Below, piece by piece: positions 31,467 to 49,319 of a stretch of 64,000 nt of DNA. The first letter of the stretch is position 1, and each line of letters begins with the position of its first letter. Under the pieces are notes generated by a model. The model was not told the origin of the DNA and searched no databases. It saw nothing but the letters and a program-made list of their open reading frames with translations. The DNA is taken from contig CAWJAU010000007.1 in NCBI GenBank assembly GCA_963840945.1, forward strand, positions 21,648 through 85,647, in the 5' to 3' direction. Made by a program: the position numbers and the translations under genes. The DNA comes from an uncultured beta proteobacterium. Lineage in GTDB: Bacteria > Pseudomonadota > Gammaproteobacteria > Burkholderiales > Casimicrobiaceae.

Positions 31467-31533
31467 TGTGGCGTGCAGGGCAACGCACGGCGGCCGACGA
31501 CACGGCCCAAACATCGCGACCGGAGGATACGCA

Positions 31534-33185
31534 ATGCTCGCAGGCTGCACGCCGTGGCCGGAAGCGGACGCGAAGCGGTACCGCGATCTCGGCTATTGGC
31601 AGCGCATCACGCTGACCGACATGCTGGCGCGGACGATAGGCCGTGCGCCGGACAAGACCGCGCTTGTCCATGGCGGCGAGCGGATCGGTTACCGTGCATT
31701 GGGCGAGACCGTCGATCGGCTCGCGTGCGGCTTCATCGGCGCGGGAATCAGGCCGCTCGACCGCGTCGTCGTCCAGCTTCCGAACATTCCGGAATTCGTG
31801 TACACGTACTTCGCACTGACGAGGATCGGCGCCATTCCGGTCACCGCGCTGCGCGCGCACCGGCACACCGAGGTCGGGCATTTCCTGCGCGCTTCGGGCG
31901 CCGTCGCGTACGTCATCCCAGACGCGATCAAGGGCTTCGATTACCGGGCGATGGCTCAGGAGCTCGTGCCGAAGGCGCCGGCGTTGTGCACGGTTTTCGT
32001 GGTGGGCGAGCCGGCCGGCGGCCAACACTCCTTGTCGAAGCTGCTCGCGACGCCGGCGGACACGGGTACCCTTGCCGAGGGTGCGTCCGGACCCGGCCGA
32101 GGTCACGACGATGCTGCTGTCAGGCGGAACCACGTCGTTGTCGAAGCTCATTCCCCGCACCCATGACGACTACGTGCTGAATGCGCGGCTCTGCGGGGCG
32201 GTCGGCGGGTTCGACGAGAGCACCGTGCTGATGGCGATCCTCCCGCTCGGGCACAACTACAATCTCGCCTCGCCCGGCATGCTGGGCGCGTTCTACTACG
32301 GCGGGACCGTCGTGCTGGCGCCGTCGGGCGAGGCCACCGACGTGTTCGGCCTCGTCGAACGCGAGCGCGTGACGACGATCGCCGCCGTCGTGCCGCTGAT
32401 CTCGGCCTGGCTCGCTTCCGACGTGCCCGACCGCTTCGATCTGTCGTCACTCAAGGTGATCCAGAACGGCGGCGCCCGCCTCGCGCCGGAGCTGCGCAGC
32501 CGCCTGCGCGATCGTTTCGGCTGCACGCCGCAGGAAATCTACGGCACCGCCGAAGGGCTCATCAACATGACGCGGCTCGACGATCCGGATGAGCTGCTGC
32601 TCGAAAGCTCTGGCGCGCCGGTGTGCGTCGATGACGAGATCATCGTCGTGGACGACGACGGCCGCGAGGTCGCCGCCGGCGTTCCCGGCGAACTGCTGAC
32701 GCGCGGCCCCTACACTATCCGCGGCTATTACGACGCGCCGGAAAAGAACCGCGAGGCCTTCACCGAGGATGGCTTTTACCGGATGGGCGACATCGTGCGT
32801 CGCCAGGGGCGCCACGTCTTTACCGAAGGGCGGCGCAAGGACCTGATCAATCGCGGCGGCGAGAAGATCAGCTGCGAGGAGGTCGAGAATCTCATCTACG
32901 CGCATCCGAAAGTCAAGGTGGCGACGCTCGTCGCGATGCCCGATCCGGTTTTCGGTGAAAAGGCGTGCGCGTTCGTCGTGCCCAAGCCCGGCGAAACACT
33001 GGCATTCGACGAGCTGATCGCGTTCCTGCGGCAGCAGAAGATCGCGACCTTCAAGCTGCCCGAGCGCCTTGAGGTCGTCAGCCGAAATGCCGTTGAGCCC
33101 GGTCGGCAAGATCCTTAAGCGGGAGTTGCGCGAGATGATCACCGAAAAGCTGGCGCGCGAGGCCCGCGAGCGAGGGACCGCGTGA
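31534..33185 (+). pseudogene. Aryl-acid AMP/CoA ligase (2,3-dihydroxybenzoate/salicylate-activating, DhbE/EntE-like), two frame disruptions (~32080, ~33080)
   Basis: 'WPEADAKRYRDLGYWQ..', 'LLSGGTTSLSKLIPRTHDDY', 'YGTAEGLI', 'FYRMGDIV..GRRKDLINRGGEKIS'. The tail 'EMPLSPVGKILKRELR' is in a third frame. The stop overlaps the next gene's GTG (GTGA). Confidence 0.85.
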
Positions 33186-34321: not shown

Positions 34322-34468
34322 ACGACCGCACCGATTTCTCCACCCGCATCGCCGGCGGCCACGTGCGCCGCTTGGGAGGTACTCGACTATCTCGTCCGCG
34401 CCAACCGCGCCCGAGAATGTCTACTACATTAGAATATTGACGCAATCGGCACCACAGGGAGGCGCATC

Positions 34469-34732
34469 GTGCCCGCTTTCGTCGTCGTTCAACTCGCATC
34501 GAACCGTGGCGCCAAGCGGGCGCTGACGCGCCGTGATGTCAAGCGGCTCGCGTCGGAGCACGATGGCGTGTTGATCGTGTCCCCCGTGCGGGATGCCGCC
34601 CGCGACGCCCCCTCTTTGTCGGAAACGATCGCAGTTCCCGACATGGCGTGCGCCCACAAGCTCGCCACGGCCTTGTGCGGCATCGACGGAATCGTAACGG
34701 CGTACGCGAAGCCCGGCGAGGAATTGCCCTAG
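34469..34732 (+). CDS. Small protein homologous to the N-terminal pro-region of the adjacent S8 protease
   Basis: AGGGAGG, 6 nt, then GTG. The 87 aa align end-to-end with protease residues ~22-133 ('PAFVVVQLAS'/'PELVVVMRAQ'; 'IAVPDMACAHKLATALCGIDGIVTAYAKPGEELP'/'VEVPDERVAELRAQLAKSELVEAAFVKPAVELP'). Confidence 0.6.
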   Translation: MPAFVVVQLASNRGAKRALTRRDVKRLASEHDGVLIVSPVRDAARDAPSLSETIAVPDMACAHKLATALCGIDGIVTAYAKPGEELP

Positions 34733-34793
34733 CAGAGGGCATCGTTGACTCCCGCGGTTATCCGCAGGGGCGTCTTGAAGAAAGGAGGTCAGC

Positions 34794-36704
34794 ATGGTAC
34801 GCAAACGCGCGAGCAAGCAGAGTAAGCGAAGCAAACCGGTAGCCGACGCGCCGACGGCGCCACCCGAGCTCGTAGTCGTCATGCGGGCGCAGGCCGCGTT
34901 AAGGGCGTCGGCCGGGCGCTTCAAGTCCGCCGCCGGTGAAAACGTGTCGGATGTCGCGAAGGTACTCGCGCGCCATGGTGCGACCCTGACGCCGATCTTC
35001 GGACCCACGGAAGAGCGCGTCATGGCGCGCCAAGCGGCGCAGAGCATGGCGGCGCAGGCACCGATGGAGGACCTCTCCGTCTTCTACAAGGTCGAGGTTC
35101 CGGACGAACGCGTCGCCGAGTTGCGAGCGCAGCTAGCCAAGAGCGAGCTTGTCGAAGCGGCTTTCGTGAAGCCAGCCGTCGAGTTGCCCAGGATCAACGA
35201 TATGGCCGCGGCGCCGGAAGAGCCCCCTCCGGCAACGCCGGATTTGACCGCCCGGCAGATCTTTCTCAATGCGGCGCCGAGCGGCATCGATGCACGCTGG
35301 GCGTGGACGCAGGCCGGCGGGCGGGGCCGCGACATCCGCATCATCGACATCGAGGGCGCGTGGCGCTTCACGCACGAAGATCTCACGCAAAACCAGGGAG
35401 GCGTCGTTGCCGGAACCACGCTCGCGGGAGTCGACTGGCGCAACCATGGCACCGCCGTCCTCGGCGAGTACAGCGGCGATGTGAACACGGTTGGTGTCGT
35501 CGGCATCTCCGCCGAAGCGATCGCCAGCGCCTGTTCGCACGGCACCATCGGTTCCGCCGCGGCCATCAACCAGGCGGCGTCCCGACTGAGAGCCGGAGAC
35601 ATCATGCTCCTCGAGATGCACCGGCCCGGCCCGCGCTTCAATTTCGCGAGTCGCGCCGATCAGCGCGGCTACATCGCGGTGGAATGGTGGCCCGATGATT
35701 TCGCGGCGATTCTCAACGCCACCAGCCGCGGCATCATCGTCGTGGAAGCCGCGGGCAACGGGGCGGAAAATCTCGACGACGCTCTGTATCAGACCCCCGG
35801 CACAGGCTTCCCCGCCGGCTGGCGCAACTCGTTCCGGCGGACGAATCGAGATTCGGGCGCGCTTGTCGTCGGGGCCGGCGCGCCGCCTCCCGGCACGCAC
35901 GGCCGCGATCACGGACCTGATCGATCACGCCTGGATTTCTCGAACTGGGGCGCGCTCATCGACGCGCAGGGTTGGGGCCGCGAGGTCACGACGTGCGGCT
36001 ACGGCGATCTGCAAGGCGGCACGAACGAAGATCTCTGGTACACCGACACCTTCAGCGGCACCTCGAGCGCATCGCCCATTGTGACTGGCGCCATCGCCTG
36101 CATTCAGGGCATGGCCAAGGCCAGGGGGCGCCCTGTCCTTACTCCGGCGCAAGTGCGCAACTGCCTTCGCTCGACGGGTTCCCCGCAGCAGGATGCGCCA
36201 GGCCGCCCGGCGACCCAGCGCATCGGCAACCGTCCCGATATCCGCGCGTTTGCAACGTGCGCCTTCGGCAAGGGCAAGGAGCTCGCCAAGGAAGTGGCCA
36301 AGGAGTTCAAGGAGGGCAAGGAGGGCAAGGAATTCGTCAAGGAAAAAGAGGGCAAGGAGCTCGTCAAGGACAAGGACACGAAGGAGCTCAAGGACAAGGA
36401 GTTCAAGGAAGGGAAAGACACGAAGGAGTTCAAGGAAGGCAAGGAAATAAAGGAGAAGGACAAGGATCTGGTGGAGGGCAAGCTCTCCGACGGAGTCATC
36501 GGCATCAGGCCAACCGACGCCGGCGCTGGCGACGGTGGCACGCAGCAGCGGCTCGCCGCACTCGAGCAGACGGTGCAGCAGCTCGTGCACTTCATCGGTA
36601 CGGAGCTGCGGCCCGATCTCAGCCGGTCAGCGCTTCAGGGCAGCAGCCAAGCCGCCAAAGACGAGAAGGATCTGAAGGACGCCGAGAAGCTGTCGGAGGG
36701 CTGA
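34794..36704 (+). CDS. S8 (subtilisin-like) serine peptidase with N-terminal pro-region and C-terminal Lys/Glu-rich repeat tail
   Basis: AAGGAGG RBS. Catalytic motifs are 'IRIIDIEGAW' (Asp), 'WRNHGTAVLGE' (His), 'VEAAGNGAENLD' (oxyanion Asn) and 'FSGTSSASPIVTG' (Ser). The tail reads 'GKGKELAKEVAKEFKEGKEGKEFVKEKEGKELVKDKDTKELKDKEFKEGKDTKEFKEGKEIKEKDKDLVEGK'. Confidence 0.9.
   Translation: MVRKRASKQSKRSKPVADAPTAPPELVVVMRAQAALRASAGRFKSAAGENVSDVAKVLARHGATLTPIFGPTEERVMARQAAQSMAAQAPMEDLSVFYKVEVPDERVAELRAQLAKSELVEAAFVKPAVELPRINDMAAAPEEPPPATPDLTARQIFLNAAPSGIDARWAWTQAGGRGRDIRIIDIEGAWRFTHEDLTQNQGGVVAGTTLAGVDWRNHGTAVLGEYSGDVNTVGVVGISAEAIASACSHGTIGSAAAINQAASRLRAGDIMLLEMHRPGPRFNFASRADQRGYIAVEWWPDDFAAILNATSRGIIVVEAAGNGAENLDDALYQTPGTGFPAGWRNSFRRTNRDSGALVVGAGAPPPGTHGRDHGPDRSRLDFSNWGALIDAQGWGREVTTCGYGDLQGGTNEDLWYTDTFSGTSSASPIVTGAIACIQGMAKARGRPVLTPAQVRNCLRSTGSPQQDAPGRPATQRIGNRPDIRAFATCAFGKGKELAKEVAKEFKEGKEGKEFVKEKEGKELVKDKDTKELKDKEFKEGKDTKEFKEGKEIKEKDKDLVEGKLSDGVIGIRPTDAGAGDGGTQQRLAALEQTVQQLVHFIGTELRPDLSRSALQGSSQAAKDEKDLKDAEKLSEG
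36267..36482 (+). repeat. Imperfect in-frame tandem repeats (AAGGAG-rich) encoding the KE[FL]K[ED]GK tail of the S8 protease
   Basis: Reiterated 'aaggag(t/c)tcaagga(a/g)ggcaag' units. More than ten AAGGAG/AAGGAA hexamers occur in about 215 nt. Confidence 0.8.
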
Positions 36705-36758
36705 AATAGCGAAGGATATCGCGCCTGTCGAGCGGGACCTTCGCTCCAAACCAAAGCG

Positions 36759-37487
36759 ATGATTGTCATCCTGTGCCATCCCGGCGATGCAGCAGCGGTT
36801 TGGCTGGGCGACGCGATGCAGTATCTCCGTGTCGGCGATCTCGAGGTGGTCGCCGTCGAGCAGCTCGTGTTCAGCCGGCAGATCGTCTATCGCCTGAGTG
36901 ACGCCGGCGACTCGGGCAGCATCGAGCTTGCCGATGGACGGATATTGCGTCCGGACGCGATCACCGGCCTCGTCAACCGAGTCCGCTACGTACCGACTCA
37001 GCACTTCGCGCGGGCGCAATCGACGGACCGCGCCTACGCTGAAGCCGAGCTGAGTGCGTTCCTGCTCGCATGGATCAATGGCGTCGCCGGCCGAGTCATC
37101 AATCCACCGCTGCCCTTCGCCCTCGGCGGCGGGACGTTCCCGATGCCGACCGTCGTGCATCTGGCCGCGATGGCCGGCTTGCCGACCCAGCCTTGGCGCG
37201 CCAGTGCGGCCGGTGACGACGACTCGAGACTTCCGATGTCACCGACGCACGCGGTGCTGACTTTCGACGGTCGGCTGTTCGGGCCTCTCCTGCCGCGACA
37301 TTTGCAGGAGGGCTGCCGCCGGCTCGCGCTCCTGCTGGGCGCGCCCCTTCTGCAAGTTGAGCTGCACCAATCGTCCGAGCGCGGTTGGCAGTTCGTCAAC
37401 GCGTCTGGCGCAGTGGATTTCCGCATCGGGGGCAACCTGCTGGCGAGAGACCTCGCTCGAGCGTTGGCCAGGAGCGTAGCCGCATGA
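36759..37487 (+). CDS. Degenerate ATP-grasp-like protein (lacks central nucleotide-binding segment), paralog of the downstream gene
   Basis: 242 aa. 'MIVILCHPGD..', 'LADGRILRPDAITGLVNRVRY' and 'GRVINPP' parallel 'MILLAGIADE..', 'LDGEAVPLSAITAMYLRL' and 'GRVLNRP' of the next gene. C-terminal 'LALLLGAPLLQVELHQSSERGWQFVNAS' parallels 'LAGRLKLPLAGIDLRRTPDGRYVCFEVNPS'. There is no equivalent of 'VIYKSVSG..FQRHV'. Confidence 0.6.
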   Translation: MIVILCHPGDAAAVWLGDAMQYLRVGDLEVVAVEQLVFSRQIVYRLSDAGDSGSIELADGRILRPDAITGLVNRVRYVPTQHFARAQSTDRAYAEAELSAFLLAWINGVAGRVINPPLPFALGGGTFPMPTVVHLAAMAGLPTQPWRASAAGDDDSRLPMSPTHAVLTFDGRLFGPLLPRHLQEGCRRLALLLGAPLLQVELHQSSERGWQFVNASGAVDFRIGGNLLARDLARALARSVAA

Positions 37488-38437
37488 TTCTCCTGGCCGG
37501 GATCGCGGACGAAAGCCCGCTCGCCCTCGTCACCGCGGCGCTCGAAGCAAGCGGCGCGGACCATCGCGTGCTGGATCAGCGACGCGTGGCCGCTGCGAAT
37601 CTCACGCTCGAGATCGCCGACGCGGCCGCCGGCGGCGCGATTGGCGGGACGCTCACTCTCGACGGCGAGGCTGTCCCGCTAAGTGCGATCACCGCGATGT
37701 ATCTGCGGCTGATGAATGACGAGTTCCTGCCCGGCATGGCCGGGCTGCCGCCGCACTGCACCGAGCGCACCCGCTGCAGCCGCTTCCACGAGCTCCTGTT
37801 GCGATTTGCCGATATCGCTCCGGGACGTGTGCTCAATCGGCCCGTCGACTCCGGGTCAAATCACTCGAAGCCCTTTCAGGCGCAGGCGATCCGTGCCGCG
37901 GGCTTCGACATCCCGGAGACCCTGATCACCAACGATTCGCAGTCGGCGCGCGAGTTCATCGAGCGCGCCTGGTCGGAAGGCGGCGGCGTGATCTACAAAT
38001 CGGTGAGCGGCGTTCGCTCCATCGTGCGGCGCGTCGAACAGCAGGATTTGCAACGACTTAATCGGATCCGCTGGTGCCCAACCCAGTTCCAGCGTCACGT
38101 CGCAGGTACGGACATCCGTGTGCATGTCGTGGGGGATATCGCGCTGGCGGCGGCGATCGTCAGCGACGCCACTGACTACCGCTACGCGGCGCGGGACACC
38201 GGCGTTGAACCGGAGATTGTCGCGTGTGCGCTCGACGCGGACGTCCGCGCGCTGTGCATCGGACTCGCGGGGCGCCTCAAGCTTCCGCTTGCCGGCATCG
38301 ACTTGAGGCGCACGCCTGATGGCCGCTATGTGTGTTTCGAGGTGAACCCCAGCCCTGCGTTCAGCTTCTACGAGCGGCGCGCCGGGCTGCCCATCGCCAA
38401 TTGTATTGCCCGCTATTTGGCCGGCGAGGTGCACTGA
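37484..38437 (+). CDS. ATP-grasp ligase of the MvdD/MdnC (graspetide maturase) type
   Basis: ATGA overlap with the previous gene. 'HSKPFQAQAIRAAGFDIPETLITND', 'VIYKSVSGVRS', 'CPTQFQRHVAGTDIRVHVVGD', 'DYRYA', 'AGIDLRRTPDGRYVCFEVNPSPAFSFYE..GLPIANCIARYL'. The motif order matches MdnC as I recall it. Confidence 0.78.
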   Translation: MILLAGIADESPLALVTAALEASGADHRVLDQRRVAAANLTLEIADAAAGGAIGGTLTLDGEAVPLSAITAMYLRLMNDEFLPGMAGLPPHCTERTRCSRFHELLLRFADIAPGRVLNRPVDSGSNHSKPFQAQAIRAAGFDIPETLITNDSQSAREFIERAWSEGGGVIYKSVSGVRSIVRRVEQQDLQRLNRIRWCPTQFQRHVAGTDIRVHVVGDIALAAAIVSDATDYRYAARDTGVEPEIVACALDADVRALCIGLAGRLKLPLAGIDLRRTPDGRYVCFEVNPSPAFSFYERRAGLPIANCIARYLAGEVH

Positions 38438-38603
38438 GCGCGCGTCGTTCGGAAAAACCTGACACCGAACTCGCGAAAGGCAGTTTCGACAAAATGGCGA
38501 GAGGCTTCGTGTTTGCTTGCGAGTATCTTTGGTGCGAGAATTCTCAATTCGCTCGGCGCGTTCGCGTCGGTACGCCATGACAATATCCGGAGGTCCTGAT
38601 CCC

Positions 38604-39745
38604 ATGCGCTCCTTAGCCTGCATTGTCACGTTTCTGCTGGGCCTCGCGGCGCCGCCGCTGCTGGCGCAGCCCCAGCCCATCAAGATTGCCGGCTTGGTCG
38701 AGCTGTCCGGTCCGGGGCGACGTCGGGCACCAACTTCAACGACGGCGTCAAGCTCGCGGCGAAGGAGATCAATGCCGCGGGCGGCATTCTGGGCCGCCGC
38801 GTCGAATTCAGCTCGTCGGATACGCAGTCGCAGCCGCAGGTGGCGAAGGCGCTGGCGGTGAAGGCCATCGACGACGGCGTGTACGTGGTGATGGGACCGG
38901 TGTTTTCGGGCTCGATCCTGGTCAGCATGGCGGAGACGCGCCGGGCGGAGATTCCGAACTTCACCGGCGGCGAAGCCACTGCCATCACCCAGCAGGGCAA
39001 TCCTTACATCTTTCGCACGTCGTTCACGCAGGCCAACGCCATGCCCAAGGTGGCGCGCTATTTCAAGGACAACCTGAAGGCGAAGACGGTGGCCGTGATC
39101 TGGGTGAACAATGACTTTGGCAAGGGCGGGCGCGACGCCTTCGTGAAGGCGATCGAGGCGCAGGGCATCAAGGTCGTGGCGGACATCTCGACCGATCAGG
39201 GCCAGCTCGACTTCTCGGGTGCGGTGCTCAAGGCGAAGCAGGCGAACGCCGACGCGCTATTCGTCTACAGCAACGAAGAGGAGTCGGCGCGGGCGTTGCG
39301 CGAGTTGCGCAAGCAGGGCTACGACAAGCCGATCGTGGGCGAGACGGTGCTCACCAGCCAGAAGGTGATCGAGCTGGCGGGCGAGGCGGCCAATGGCGCC
39401 GTCGCGCACGTCGGCCTCACTGCGGATGCACCCAATCCCGCCATCACGGCCTTCGCGGCGAAATTCCAGAAGGAATACAACTACAAGCCGGACCACAACG
39501 GCCTGAAGGGCTACACGGCGATGTACGTGGTCAAGGCGGTCACCGAGAAGATCGGCAAGGTCGATCCCAAGGCCTTCGCCAACGCCATGCACGGCATCAA
39601 GCTGTCGGCCAAGGAGTATCCCGGGATCCTGATGGACGTGAGCTTCGACAAGAACGGGGACCTCGATCGCGAGAGCTTCATGACCCGTGCGGCGAACGGC
39701 AAACAAGAGGTGATCGCCGTGTTGCCGGCCGTGTCGGCCCCGTAA
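38604..39745 (+). pseudogene. LivK-like ABC periplasmic binding protein, orphan, one frame disruption near 38715
   Basis: 'MRSLACIVTFLLGLAAPPLLAQPQPIKIAGLVELSGPG' (38517 frame), then 'TSGTNFNDGVKLAAKEINAAGGILGRRVEF..VVMGPVFSGSI' (38840 frame). The shift is at a GGGG run. An alternative start is at 38577. Confidence 0.8.
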
Positions 39746-45644: not shown

Positions 45645-46460
45645 TTAGGCGATTGCCTGACGTCGCAATGACCAGGTCGCGATGATCCGGTGCAGGGCGT
45701 CCAATCCCTCGGTCAGAGCAGCGGGCCCGGGTTGCAGGATGAGGGGAGACTTGATCTCGTGCAGCTCGCCATCGCGCACGGCAGGCACGGCATGCCAGGC
45801 GTTACGAGCCGCTACACGCTCGGGACGAAACTTCTTGCCGCACCACGAGCCGATGATGATGTCGGGAGCGCGGGCCACGACGGCGAGCGGGTCCGCAATG
45901 ATGCGGTCGCGACCGAGACTGGCTTGCGCACGCTCGGGAAAGATATCGTCGCCGCCGGCGATGGCCATCAGTTCGCTGACCCACCGGATGGCCGAGATCT
46001 GCGGCTCGTCCCATTCCTCGAAATAAACCTTGGGGCGCCGCGGCAGGCGTGCGGCGGCTTCTGCTACCTGATCGATGTGGACTTGCAAGCTGTCGGCATA
46101 GGTCTTGGCCTGCGTATTCGCACCCACCATGGCGCCCAGGCGGCGCACATAACCCAGGATCGCATCCACGGAGCGGTGGTTGCTGATCCAGACCTCGATG
46201 CCGTGCTTGATCAACGCCTGGGCGATGTCGGCCTGCAGGTCGGAGAAGCCGATCGCCAGATCGGGTTTCAGCGCGAGGATCGCGTCAATCTTGGCGCTGG
46301 TGAAAGCTGAGATACGCGGCTTTTCCCGCCGGGCACGTGGCGGACGCACGGTGAAGCCCGAGATGCCGACGATGCGCCGCTCTTCGCCGAGTGCGTAGAG
46401 CACCTCGGTGGACTCCTCCGTCAGGCACACGATGCGTTCAGGGAAGGCGGCTGCGGCCAT
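45645..46460 (-). CDS. Class 8 periplasmic binding protein (BtuF/cobalamin- or siderophore-binding type)
   Basis: 'RIVCLTEESTEVLYALGEERRIVGISGF', 'LKPDLAIGFSD', 'PKVYFEEWDEP', 'APDIIIGSWCG'. The start is placed at Met 29 of ORF 45645..46544. Confidence 0.78.
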   Translation of the reverse strand: MAAAAFPERIVCLTEESTEVLYALGEERRIVGISGFTVRPPRARREKPRISAFTSAKIDAILALKPDLAIGFSDLQADIAQALIKHGIEVWISNHRSVDAILGYVRRLGAMVGANTQAKTYADSLQVHIDQVAEAAARLPRRPKVYFEEWDEPQISAIRWVSELMAIAGGDDIFPERAQASLGRDRIIADPLAVVARAPDIIIGSWCGKKFRPERVAARNAWHAVPAVRDGELHEIKSPLILQPGPAALTEGLDALHRIIATWSLRRQAIA

Positions 46461-47759: not shown

Positions 47760-48755
47760 CTAGACGGCTGACTGCGTGCGCAAATCCGCGAGGATTGCCT
47801 CCATTACGTGCGCGGTCCTTGCCGCCGATTCGCCGGTGCTCGGGCACTTTCCGCTCCCGTTGAGCTCGTCGACAATGGTCTGGATCAACGGTTGGTGGAC
47901 GTGGTCCGGATCTGCGACAGGAAGCTCCTCCATGACGTCGCCGCGGAAGATCCGGATTGGGACCGGCTGCGTCGTGGAAAAGCGGATACGTCCCTTGGCT
48001 CCCACGATCTCGTTGTATTCCTCATCGAAGTCCGCGGTATAGCACCACACGCCGCTTCCAAACACGCCTGAGGCAAACCGGTACGTTGCGGTCACGATGT
48101 CTTCCGGTCGGTAGGCTCCAGCCTGATTCCCGGCAAATGCGCGTACCTCGGCGACCGGCCCGAACATGAAGTCCAGAAAATCGAATGTGTGACAGGCGCC
48201 CTCGAAGAAGAGGCCGCCGCCGGATAATGCGGGATTGACCCGCCAGGGAACCGCGCCGGCGGCAAATTGATCGACGCCGGGGAGGCGCTGAAGCTGGCGC
48301 GACGTGACCATGCGGACCTCGCCAACGGCGTCGGCGGCGATGAGGTCGCGTACGGCGAGAAACCGTGGGAGCGCGCGCCGGTAATAGCCGACCCACAGCG
48401 GGACCCCCGCCGCGCGGCAGGCGGCAATCATGTCGAGGCATTCGGCGTGATTCATTCCCATTGGCTTTTCGACGTACACGGGCTTTCCCGCCGCCGCGCA
48501 GCGCAGGGTGTAGTCGCAGTGGCTGTCGGTCAGCGTGGCGATGTAGATGGCGTCGATGTCGGGTGCGCGAATGATCGCGTCGGCGTCGTCGTGCCAGCGC
48601 GCCACGCCATGTCGGCGCGCGTAATCGGCCGCCAACGCGCCGTTGCGGCGCATGACGGCGACCAATTCGGAGTGTGCGGCCTTCCCGAATCCCGGACCGC
48701 TCTTCCGTTCGGTCACGTCGCCGCAACCGATCATTCCCCAGCGCACCGTCTTCAT
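47760..48755 (-). CDS. Gfo/Idh/MocA family oxidoreductase
   Basis: 'MKTVRWGMIGCGDVTERK', 'VYVEKPM'. The start is placed at Met 54 of ORF 47760..48914. Confidence 0.85.
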   Translation of the reverse strand: MKTVRWGMIGCGDVTERKSGPGFGKAAHSELVAVMRRNGALAADYARRHGVARWHDDADAIIRAPDIDAIYIATLTDSHCDYTLRCAAAGKPVYVEKPMGMNHAECLDMIAACRAAGVPLWVGYYRRALPRFLAVRDLIAADAVGEVRMVTSRQLQRLPGVDQFAAGAVPWRVNPALSGGGLFFEGACHTFDFLDFMFGPVAEVRAFAGNQAGAYRPEDIVTATYRFASGVFGSGVWCYTADFDEEYNEIVGAKGRIRFSTTQPVPIRIFRGDVMEELPVADPDHVHQPLIQTIVDELNGSGKCPSTGESAARTAHVMEAILADLRTQSAV

Positions 48756-48923
48756 GATCAACGGGAGGACCGCGGGCGATCGTGCCGCCCCACTGGTCGC
48801 ATGCGAGCAAGTAGACACATGAGTATCATCATAACGCGGACACCTTCGAGGCGCTCGCTCCGCTGCAATTGGGTTCCGAAGCGACTTCCGCCATGTCAAT
48901 GCGGGAATTTCCAAAGGTATTCG

Positions 48924-49319
48924 ATGAGCGAAATCCAGTTCATGATGATTCCGGGCGCGCCCGCGCCGGTCGCGCCGTTCTCACACGCCGTCGAAGTCGA
49001 CGGATGGGTATTCCTCACGGGGCAGATGCCCACCGATCCGAACGACGATGATGCGCCGCTTCCCGCGGGTATCGAGGCTCAGACCCGCCGGGTGATCGAC
49101 AACCTTGTCCTGGTGCTGGACGGCGTGGGCCTCCGACTCGAGCACGTGGTGGCGGCGCGCGCCTTCCTGACCCATTTCGAGCGCGACTACGCACCGATGA
49201 ACGAGATCTATCGTTCCTACTTCCCCGACAATCGCTTGCCCGCACGGACATGTGTCGGCGTGACGGGGCTCGCGCGCCATGCGCTCGTCGAGATCGACCT
49301 CATCGCGCGCAGGCCTTAG
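48924..49319 (+). CDS. RidA/YjgF family reactive-intermediate deaminase
   Basis: 'APFSHAVEVDGWVFLTGQ', 'EAQTRRVIDNL', 'PARTCVGVTGLARHALVEIDLIA'. Confidence 0.88.
   Translation: MSEIQFMMIPGAPAPVAPFSHAVEVDGWVFLTGQMPTDPNDDDAPLPAGIEAQTRRVIDNLVLVLDGVGLRLEHVVAARAFLTHFERDYAPMNEIYRSYFPDNRLPARTCVGVTGLARHALVEIDLIARRP

Follow-up and report, generated by a model that had tools for sequence, protein, structure and literature searches.

Association of a lysine/glutamate-rich C-terminal tail module on diverse proteins with a graspetide-type ATP-grasp ligase and its domain-deleted paralogue: a candidate protein-level modification system

Graspetide ATP-grasp ligases are known for producing small cyclic peptides. 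In the structurally characterized ligase PsnB, an asymmetric dimer whose Arg residues make contacts across the subunit boundary, the ring-forming carboxylate is brought to ATP by Arg213; this residue, Arg72 and the D(F/W)R loop are essential in PsnB and count as macrocyclase hallmarks (10.1101/2021.03.09.434688). Side-chain amides in repeated arrangements have precedents as well: KxxxD lactams are repeated in the 22-kDa precursor CorA, with synthetases that depend on a partner protein (PMC13097080), and (KxxE)n lactams are found in myxomiditides, where one ATP-grasp protein is inactive alone (PMC12848669). A census of ATP-grasp proteins described a "branch 8", in which a truncated ATP-grasp protein is encoded with peptidases of unrelated families and for which no precursors were found (Makarova et al. 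2022, Biol Direct 17:7, PMC8939145). Here, we analyze a four-gene cassette of this kind in a stretch of 64,000 nucleotides (the window) from an uncultured beta proteobacterium of the Casimicrobiaceae (contig CAWJAU010000007.1, assembly GCA_963840945.1, positions 21,648 to 85,647 of the forward strand). The genes, denoted g1 to g4, encode a separate copy of a protease pro-region (g1), an S8 protease with a C-terminal tail module (g2), a truncated ATP-grasp paralogue (g3), and a complete ATP-grasp ligase (g4). We consider it on balance probable, judging from sequence comparisons, that the tail module, g3 and g4 constitute a protein-level graspetide-type modification system, in which the tail is likely to be the substrate of Lys-Glu/Asp cross-linking.

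The central evidence comes from the comparison of 101 loci from five phyla, 80 of which were obtained in a metagenome scan with a g4 profile, out of more than 571 relatives. Of the 74 loci with room for g3, 73 carry it immediately ahead of g4. The tail motif, counted only where at least 1.3 kilobases (kb) of upstream sequence were available, is present in 69 of 70 loci. Moreover, a hidden Markov model (HMM) of the tail motif matched 71 of 11,600 six-frame open reading frames (ORFs), and each of the 71 is the ORF immediately 5' of g3. The N-terminal part (head) of this ORF varies widely. It can be an S8 protease, an astacin (E 6e-51), a tyrosinase (3e-36), a Kelch propeller, a NAL1-like serine protease, an unknown domain of ~170 residues, or a domain found in a phage-tail-like cluster; it can also be missing altogether, as in free-standing K/E-repeat proteins of ~150-300 residues. 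Overall, 63 unique tails, borne by unrelated N-terminal domains, contain the motif. A genome scan with a g3 profile additionally recovered g3-g4 pairs in Amycolatopsis, Kutzneria, Hyalangium and Bryobacteraceae, without an S8 gene; in these genomes, the ORF directly 5' of g3 ends with K/E/D repeats and "...FIxxxxRPxVGxxAL". A phmmer search with the 61-residue end of the tail, a query too short for a census, found 70 representatives at E<=1e-3, with matches that are C-terminal and mostly on K/E-repeat proteins.

All-versus-all clustering of the neighbourhood ORFs yielded no fourth conserved gene, only antisense shadows and lineage-specific synteny, and no transporter, leader peptidase or small precursor-like ORF conserved over the loci. 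Because the heads vary while the tail, g3 and g4 are constant, the conserved system consists of these three components, and the S8 protease with g1 is one interchangeable head. The tail, and not the protease or g1, is therefore strongly favoured as the partner of the ATP-grasp pair on these sequence data. Furthermore, since the same tail is carried by many unrelated proteins wherever g3-g4 occur, it is probably the missing substrate of an orphan enzyme group. The first-pass annotation of the window, made without database searches, had named the protease tail as a candidate substrate, a choice that this co-occurrence favours. Its wider suggestion that the system cross-links a subtilase fits the present locus, where the tail is on an S8 protease, but the protease is not essential, as the tail is also found on astacin, tyrosinase or Kelch proteins or alone. 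The full four-gene cassette recurs in unrelated contexts, namely in a beta-proteobacterial metagenome-assembled genome (MAG), an Acidobacteriota MAG, Bauldia and Tepidamorphaceae MAGs, and a repABC-plasmid context, with homologues in cultured Rhizobium leguminosarum (locus of WP_222413301.1) and Ensifer; thus, the synteny of the four genes extends to other genomes, between unrelated flanks.

The tail module of g2 has three parts (Table 1), and the consensus of the 63 unique tails is (K-[E/D]-x)n ... (E/Q)RLaaLExxVxxLxHFIxxxLRPDLsxGALxxEPD. In the repeats of these tails, Lys accounts for 27.5% of residues, Glu for 20.8%, Asp for 8.1% and Thr for 2.3%. The tail had been described in advance as dense in Thr, Lys, Glu and Asp; this holds for Lys, Glu and Asp but not for Thr, and because Thr is rare, Lys-Glu/Asp amide links are more plausible than esters. 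An acidic residue is found at K+1 2.1 times and at K+4 1.5 times as often as expected, K-K spacings of 3 and 6 residues are enriched, and the period is strictly 3 (K-acid-x). Despite the abundance of Lys, KK adjacency is reduced to 0.02 of the expectation (10 observed, with ~50 times more expected), which could reflect the register of an enzyme or a structural constraint. The KK avoidance, together with the ordered pattern, distinguishes the repeats from generic charged low-complexity sequence.

In g2, the repeat is visible at the DNA level as 9/18/27-nucleotide periodic repeats at 36271-36482. It is predicted to be disordered (AlphaFold predicted local distance difference test, pLDDT, 25-31) and would therefore be accessible, and residues 582-605 are predicted to form a helix. 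Conservation was studied in 45 S8 orthologues with 60-93% identity. Many K and E positions of the repeat are invariant or at least 90% conserved in this set; R586, E591, H599, F600, I601, R606, P607 and D608 of the second part are invariant; and K622, K625, D626, K628, D629 and E631 of the third part are at least 90% conserved. The terminal motif A-K-x-x-K-D-x-K-D-x-E-K-L-x-E ends most enzyme-fused tails but not most free-standing ones (seen in g2 and in many tails of L031-L094, P0256, P0258 and P0285). Located downstream of HFI...RPDL, this K/D motif could represent a canonical leader-then-core arrangement.

The ligase g4 was compared to families and structures of known function. Among NCBIfam models, it matches TIGR04187 (110.1 bits, E 1e-31), MvdD (83), MvdC (78) and rimK_fam (TIGR00768, 60.9), and Pfam finds a RimK-like ATP-grasp domain (E 4e-10). 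In a search against Protein Data Bank (PDB) sequences, E values were 7e-26 for PsnB, 3e-14 for MdnB/C and 4e-7 for RimK, with further matches to PruB, AMdnB and CdnC. The alignment with PsnB is nearly end to end (residues 2-308), with the pre-ATP-grasp N-domain aligned from PsnB residue 2. The residues R75, R212 and D231-Y232-R233 and the metal site E286-x-N288 are invariant in 40 homologues; the first three align with PsnB Arg72, Arg213 and DFR233-235 (chain numbering offset 20). By these comparisons, g4 appears to group with the graspetide macrocyclases and not with RimK/GshB, in agreement with its initial description as a microviridin-type ligase. Among PLSDB plasmids, no close relative of g4 was found, all matches having at most 36% identity.

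The gene g3 had been proposed to match both ends of g4 without the central segment, and hhalign bears this out: the alignment is colinear over both ends, while the central ~85 residues of g4 are unmatched (probability 70%, E 4e-5). Raw BLAST is marginal for this pair (E 0.021) and for g1 versus g2 (39 residues, E 0.058); therefore, profiles and structure were required. The protein lacks the central ATP-binding domain, and the Glu of the Mg-binding ExN motif is deleted in the hhalign alignment. It has no Pfam or NCBIfam match, and its profile has no match among PDB sequences. However, an AlphaFold model with a pLDDT of 88.8 gave PruB as the top Foldseek match (3e-10), followed by AMdnB, MdnB, MdnC, CdnC and PsnB; graspetide macrocyclases range from 1e-10 to 1e-6, compared to ~1e-4 for LysX and RimK. 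Since the central domain and the Mg-site Glu are absent and the macrocyclase-like fold is retained, g3 is a predicted pseudoenzyme, that is, a catalytically dead macrocyclase paralogue according to its sequence and model. R74 of g3 is invariant, at a position that approximately corresponds to PsnB Arg72. The g3 family is small, with 131 clusters, all cassette-type.

The proposed mechanism can be outlined as follows. The catalytic ATP-grasp macrocyclase would be g4, with g3 most likely replacing one subunit of the usual homodimer and helping to bind the substrate. The helix and HFI...RPDL element (HFIxxxLRPDLxxGAL) would dock on g3/g4, whereupon g4 would use ATP to activate Glu/Asp side chains and join them to Lys epsilon-amines in the repeats and/or in the terminal K/D motif. 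The product would be isopeptide (omega-amide) staples, within one tail or between tails. In S8 loci, g1 would serve the protease head as a trans inhibitor or folding chaperone. No adjacent small precursor of the classical kind is conserved; instead, a large protein carries at its C-terminal end the K/E/D-rich repeat and, downstream of it, the motif.

Several observations weigh against this model. The position of the docking-like motif, C-terminal to the repeats, is the reverse of the canonical leader-then-core order in graspetides, and the segment that follows the HFI...RPDL motif is too variable for a universal core. One locus (L100 3772-5798) on a contig with 41% guanine and cytosine has a g4 homologue (44% identity) beside a tail-less tyrosinase-like ORF and no g3; this sole exception among 74 loci could represent a separate subtype or a locus in decay. 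The scores of g4 are below the NCBIfam cut-offs of TIGR04187 (110.1 versus 350), MvdD (83 versus 475) and MvdC (78 versus 425). Given that g4 is below the cut-offs of all named maturase families, it represents a distinct, unnamed subfamily; it is also below the RimK cut-off of TIGR00768 (60.9 versus 143.4 bits). The full-length AlphaFold model of g2 has low confidence (mean pLDDT 58) and was used for secondary structure and disorder only. The cassette has no signal peptide or exporter, and it is not obvious what a cytoplasmic protease would gain from a cross-linked tail. Finally, the co-occurrence would also fit a tail that g3/g4 bind as a regulator, scaffold or assembly tag.

The last possibility deserves a closer look, because the portability of the tail over unrelated cargo-like enzymes resembles that of sorting or cargo-loading tags. 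According to this explanation, the tail would serve for binding, targeting or assembly: g3/g4 would bind its HFI...RPDL helix and so regulate, sequester, oligomerise or load the attached enzyme, and g4 would have a different substrate, such as a small molecule or another protein. The heptad-like amphipathic helix of the tail agrees with such a role, as does the presence of the tail within a phage-tail-like structural cluster (Baseplate_J, beta-helix, GH25) in Amycolatopsis and Kutzneria, and co-occurrence alone does not separate binding from modification. Nevertheless, g4 retains the full macrocyclase catalytic set, including the Arg that recognises the ring-forming acidic residue; the repeats are full of the very residues that these enzymes join as donors and acceptors, in an ordered, KK-avoiding pattern; and the loci conserve no alternative substrate gene. 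We regard a pure binding tag as unlikely. An activity of the RimK type, i.e., the addition of free amino acids (e.g., poly-Glu) to the tail C-terminus or side chains without cross-links, seems decidedly improbable. RimK acts on the acidic C-terminus of ribosomal protein S6, which it extends, and g2 ends in an acidic/Lys motif; in addition, the RimK-like ATP-grasp domain is the only one that Pfam detects in g4, which stays under the trusted cut-offs of the maturase families. Conversely, g4 is much closer to macrocyclases in the HMM and PDB searches and conserves the macrocyclase pre-ATP-grasp N-domain and the D(F/W)R and Arg213 features, and the tail C-terminal ends are highly variable over the family.

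For branches 7 and 8, where unrelated peptidases recur and a small precursor gene is missing, it was proposed that the peptidases cut proteins encoded elsewhere and that the ATP-grasps cyclise the resulting peptides (PMC8939145); the tail would then be incidental. The present loci likewise contain no conserved small precursor-like ORF. Many of them, however, have no peptidase (free-standing K/E-repeat, tyrosinase or Kelch proteins) and still retain g3-g4 and the tail, so that the invariant element is the tail and not protease activity, and we find this proposal very unlikely to apply here. There is scarcely any likelihood that g1 provides, with its C-terminus (VTAYAKPGEELP), a microviridin-like core that g3/g4 cyclise into an S8 inhibitor, as the first-pass annotation had also suggested. 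The idea has its attractions: microviridins, the products of paired ATP-grasp ligases, inhibit serine proteases (PMC12848669); the end of g1 contains T, K, E and E; and g1 is the first gene of the operon. Yet g1 is absent from every non-S8 locus that retains g3-g4, and among 18 homologues the Thr is replaced by E/A/G/D/S and the Lys by Q/R, and the Glu positions vary. What is conserved there, the "AYxKPxxELP" end, can be attributed to protease binding, because the same motif ends the internal pro-region of g2. We therefore rejected g1 as a core peptide, in view of its S8-only distribution, the end in common with the g2 pro-region and the unconserved Thr, Lys and Glu.

With the tail as the favoured partner of the g3-g4 pair, a more specific formulation can be considered, which we put forward tentatively, as plausible rather than probable on the sequence patterns at hand: the tail would be a portable "graspetide tag", found in at least five phyla and stapled on full-length enzymes by a heterodimer of a live and a dead ATP-grasp protein, through Lys-Glu/Asp isopeptide bonds. 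The cargo would include S8, S1-like and astacin proteases, tyrosinase, Kelch proteins and proteins of phage-tail clusters. In such a tag, the orphan ATP-grasp branch 8, and perhaps its sister branch 7 as well, would have their "missing precursors".

In the actinomycetes, the trio of tail protein, g3 and g4 was observed inside a conserved phage-tail-like block (Amycolatopsis vancoresmycina, L011 1-14402; L012-L017; Kutzneria buriramensis, L020). The gene order of the block is Baseplate_J protein, 756-residue protein, tail-module protein, g3, g4, right-handed beta-helix protein and GH25 lysozyme, and the tail-module protein occupies the slot expected for a fibre gene. This arrangement hints that the cross-linking module is connected with a tailocin, extracellular contractile injection system (eCIS) or prophage structure.

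The remaining components of the cassette are the S8 protease and g1. The g2 protein contains a Pfam Peptidase_S8 domain (PF00082, E 9e-10, 38.8 bits versus the gathering score of 21.8), and the catalytic triad and oxyanion Asn (D185, H218, N322, S424) are invariant in 45 homologues; hence, the intact S8 protease with a repeat, as initially described, is upheld. No signal peptide is evident from the sequence. Database proteins include one that is 100% identical to g2 (P0311) and another, with 99% identity, under the name "S8 family peptidase [Casimicrobiaceae bacterium]". AlphaFold predicts for the g2 pro-region the elements E25-30, H52-60, E64-67, H74-83, E97-101, H104-115 and E120-126 (E, strand; H, helix; pLDDT 65-84), a beta-alpha-beta-(alpha)-beta-alpha-beta order compatible with a subtilase propeptide, the confidence of the model being moderate. 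The reading of g1 as a copy of this pro-region is corroborated by hhalign (g1 residues 15-87 versus g2 residues 45-132, probability 98.2%, E 4e-14), and g1 ends with ...AYAKPGEELP. A g1 HMM matches 22 loci, all S8-type, as well as the S8 ORFs themselves, and g1-like ORFs are located upstream of the S8 gene wherever room exists. No Pfam or NCBIfam model matches g1; Pfam Inhibitor_I9 was not detected in g1 or g2, and g2 gives PF00082 alone (E up to 1). Free-standing propeptide-like inhibitors of subtilases are well established. Judging from its sequence relationships, g1 probably acts on the S8 domain in trans, in the manner of a propeptide, as an inhibitor or folding chaperone, and we infer that it belongs with the protease and not with the ATP-grasp chemistry.

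Table 1. Positions of the cassette and of its component features, numbered from the first letter of the window
Feature	Position	Strand	Basis
Whole cassette, block of DNA homology common to other genomes	34454..38448	+	blastn to L001
g1, 87 residues, pro-region copy	34469..34732	+	ORF, GTG start
g2, 636-residue S8 subtilase with pro-region and C-terminal tail module	34794..36704	+	ORF, Pfam PF00082
g2 pro-region, residues ~25-132, ends FVKPAVELP	34866..35189	+	homologous to g1; AlphaFold (AF2) secondary structure
Tail part 1, residues 492-561, repeat of (K-[E/D]-x)n, proposed core for cross-links	36267..36476	+	sequence, DNA repeats, predicted disorder
Tail part 2, amphipathic helix and motif TQQRLAALEQTVQQLVHFIGTELRPDLSRSAL, residues 583-615, proposed g3/g4 docking element	36540..36638	+	invariant residues
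Tail part 3, extreme C-terminus AAKDEKDLKDAEKLSEG, K/D motif, residues 620-636, possible second core	36651..36701	+	conservation
g3, 242-residue truncated ATP-grasp paralogue, predicted catalytically dead	36759..37487	+	ORF, hhalign, AF2 and Foldseek
g4, 317-residue complete graspetide-type ATP-grasp ligase	37484..38437	+	ORF, ATG start, TIGR04187

The four ORFs are co-directional and were confirmed at the coordinates first assigned to them, as were their translation signals: a Shine-Dalgarno sequence AGGGAGG at 34456-34462, 6 nucleotides upstream of the g1 GTG; AAAGGAGG upstream of the g2 ATG at 34794; and an ATGA stop/start overlap at 37484-37487, by which g4 is translationally coupled to g3. 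In the comparison to a beta-proteobacterial MAG (L001), blastn identity is 85.9% over exactly 34454-38448, with unrelated flanks. Because the similarity stops at these two positions, the four genes represent a discrete unit. No convincing terminal repeats were found at the edges of the cassette, and a promoter/terminator scan of it found no consensus; the AT-rich patch upstream is not a consensus promoter and is outside the conserved block. None of the four proteins has a PADLOC match at E up to 1, and thus the idea of a defence system is unsupported.

The DNA around several copies of the cassette was also inspected. In the window, the upstream gene for an AMP-binding enzyme (31468-33118) is split over two overlapping frames, which cover Pfam profile positions 3-129 and then 157-384. 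The downstream gene for a periplasmic binding protein (38517-39745) has its signal peptide and N-terminus in the ORF 38517-38861 and its body in another frame, at 38840-39745. The first-pass annotation had called the flanking genes decayed; the frame splits are there, but they may mark genuine pseudogenes or be indel artefacts of long-read MAG assembly. It should be noted that the cassette of a second assembly, ERZ25039547 (L003 5288-8004), is broken into many small ORFs, whereas it is intact in the twin contig (L002 5296-8004). This difference is typical of assembly indels, and apparent "decay" in such MAG contigs should therefore be read cautiously. A metagenome contig (L023) shares with the window further ~78-79% identical segments, at 45680-46454 and 47778-49318, in a different order and orientation, and probably comes from a related organism rearranged around the cassette. 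Another copy (L002/L004/L005 9032-16000) adjoins an insertion sequence (IS) with a DDE transposase, a resolvase, a PIN/MazE toxin-antitoxin pair and repABC-type replication/partition genes. The IS, resolvase and repABC neighbours place that copy on a plasmid or in a mobile region, which is consistent with horizontal spread.

The significance of the proposed system, if it is confirmed, would be several-fold. The census had left the substrates of two peptidase-linked enzyme branches open (PMC8939145), and the identification of the tail would provide an answer. Side-chain cross-linking of the type known from peptides that are made on ribosomes and modified after translation (RiPPs) would extend to full-size proteins, and the odd C-terminus common to proteases, tyrosinase and proteins of phage-tail-like clusters would be explained. 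The graspetide ligase family would gain a natural obligate pseudoenzyme subunit. The tail would also be a genetically encoded, ATP-driven isopeptide-stapling tag with uses in protein engineering. Homologues in cultured Rhizobium leguminosarum, Ensifer and Amycolatopsis make experiments practical.

Compared to known systems, the components show the following similarities and differences. Like subtilase propeptides and inhibitors of the MEROPS I9 type, g1 is homologous to the pro-region of the adjacent S8 protease, may share its predicted beta-alpha-beta-type fold and has a C-terminal motif in common with it; it differs in that the Pfam Inhibitor_I9 profile recognises neither g1 nor g2, and inhibition or chaperoning by g1 would be by analogy. 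With RimK, g4 has in common the ATP-grasp superfamily, the Pfam domain and the modification, in the proposed model, of the tail of a full-length protein. However, RimK adds free Glu to the alpha-carboxyl end and has no dead-paralogue partner, and its similarity to g4 is far weaker than that of the macrocyclases. The MdnB/MdnC and Myx ligases are encoded by paired ATP-grasp genes and include enzymes that form Lys-Glu lactams, e.g., (KxxE)n by MyxF, and MyxD2 is inactive alone (PMC12848669); the MdnB/MdnC folds are matched by the g3 model. The difference is that both MdnB and MdnC are complete and act with a PFFARFL leader and a TxKxPSDxEE core, the products being small protease inhibitors. PsnB, the plesiocin ligase (group 2, PDB 7drm), is the closest solved structure to g4 and resembles it in Arg72, Arg213 and D(F/W)R and, in the proposed model, in the repeated cores of its precursor and in dimer formation. 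PsnB, however, is a homodimer that makes Thr-Glu esters on a small precursor with an N-terminal leader, whereas the cassette has a dead-paralogue partner and a Lys/Glu/Asp-rich putative core nearly without Thr, located upstream of the motif and fused to full-size enzymes.

The corallotide system CorA/CorB (Carter et al. 2026, PMC13097080) is similar in its TIGR04187-type synthetase, in a 22-kDa precursor with five KxxxD motifs that become Lys-Asp isopeptides, and in its dependence on partner proteins. In systems of this type, the partners are not ATP-grasp paralogues and the precursor carries no fused enzyme. PF00082 (S8) is absent from the co-occurrence table of that study, which covers 43 groups, and the tail motif does not appear among those of its predicted precursors that were searched, absences that are not proof. 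Its group 30 (Fig. S7, Table S4) comprises Streptomyces loci with astacin (98.5%), YscW (80%) and Baseplate_J (15%), and may correspond to the sister "branch 7" type. The RODEO "precursor" of that group resembles, by its size and the YscW frequency, a YscW-like small protein beside the astacin, analogous to g1 beside the S8 protease. Among our loci, L092 has an astacin that carries the K/E tail together with g3-g4; therefore, in group 30/branch 7 too, the true substrate may be a peptidase-borne tail.

The closest correspondence is with branch 8 (PMC8939145): an ATP-grasp beside a truncated, inactive ATP-grasp, unrelated peptidases and no small precursor match what is seen in the 101 loci, and, at the level of locus content, the cassette fits this branch by description. 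The truncated protein there is described with "the two N-terminal domains", whereas g3 retains the N- and C-terminal parts and has lost the central one. The first-pass annotation had known of no graspetide-type system with a protease-fused substrate. As a locus type, the system has been reported, and the association of the genes was thus known already; what appears to be new is the portable, protein-fused tail, a conserved module of K/E-repeat and HFI...RPDL that is the invariant third component, whether on peptidases, on non-peptidases or alone.

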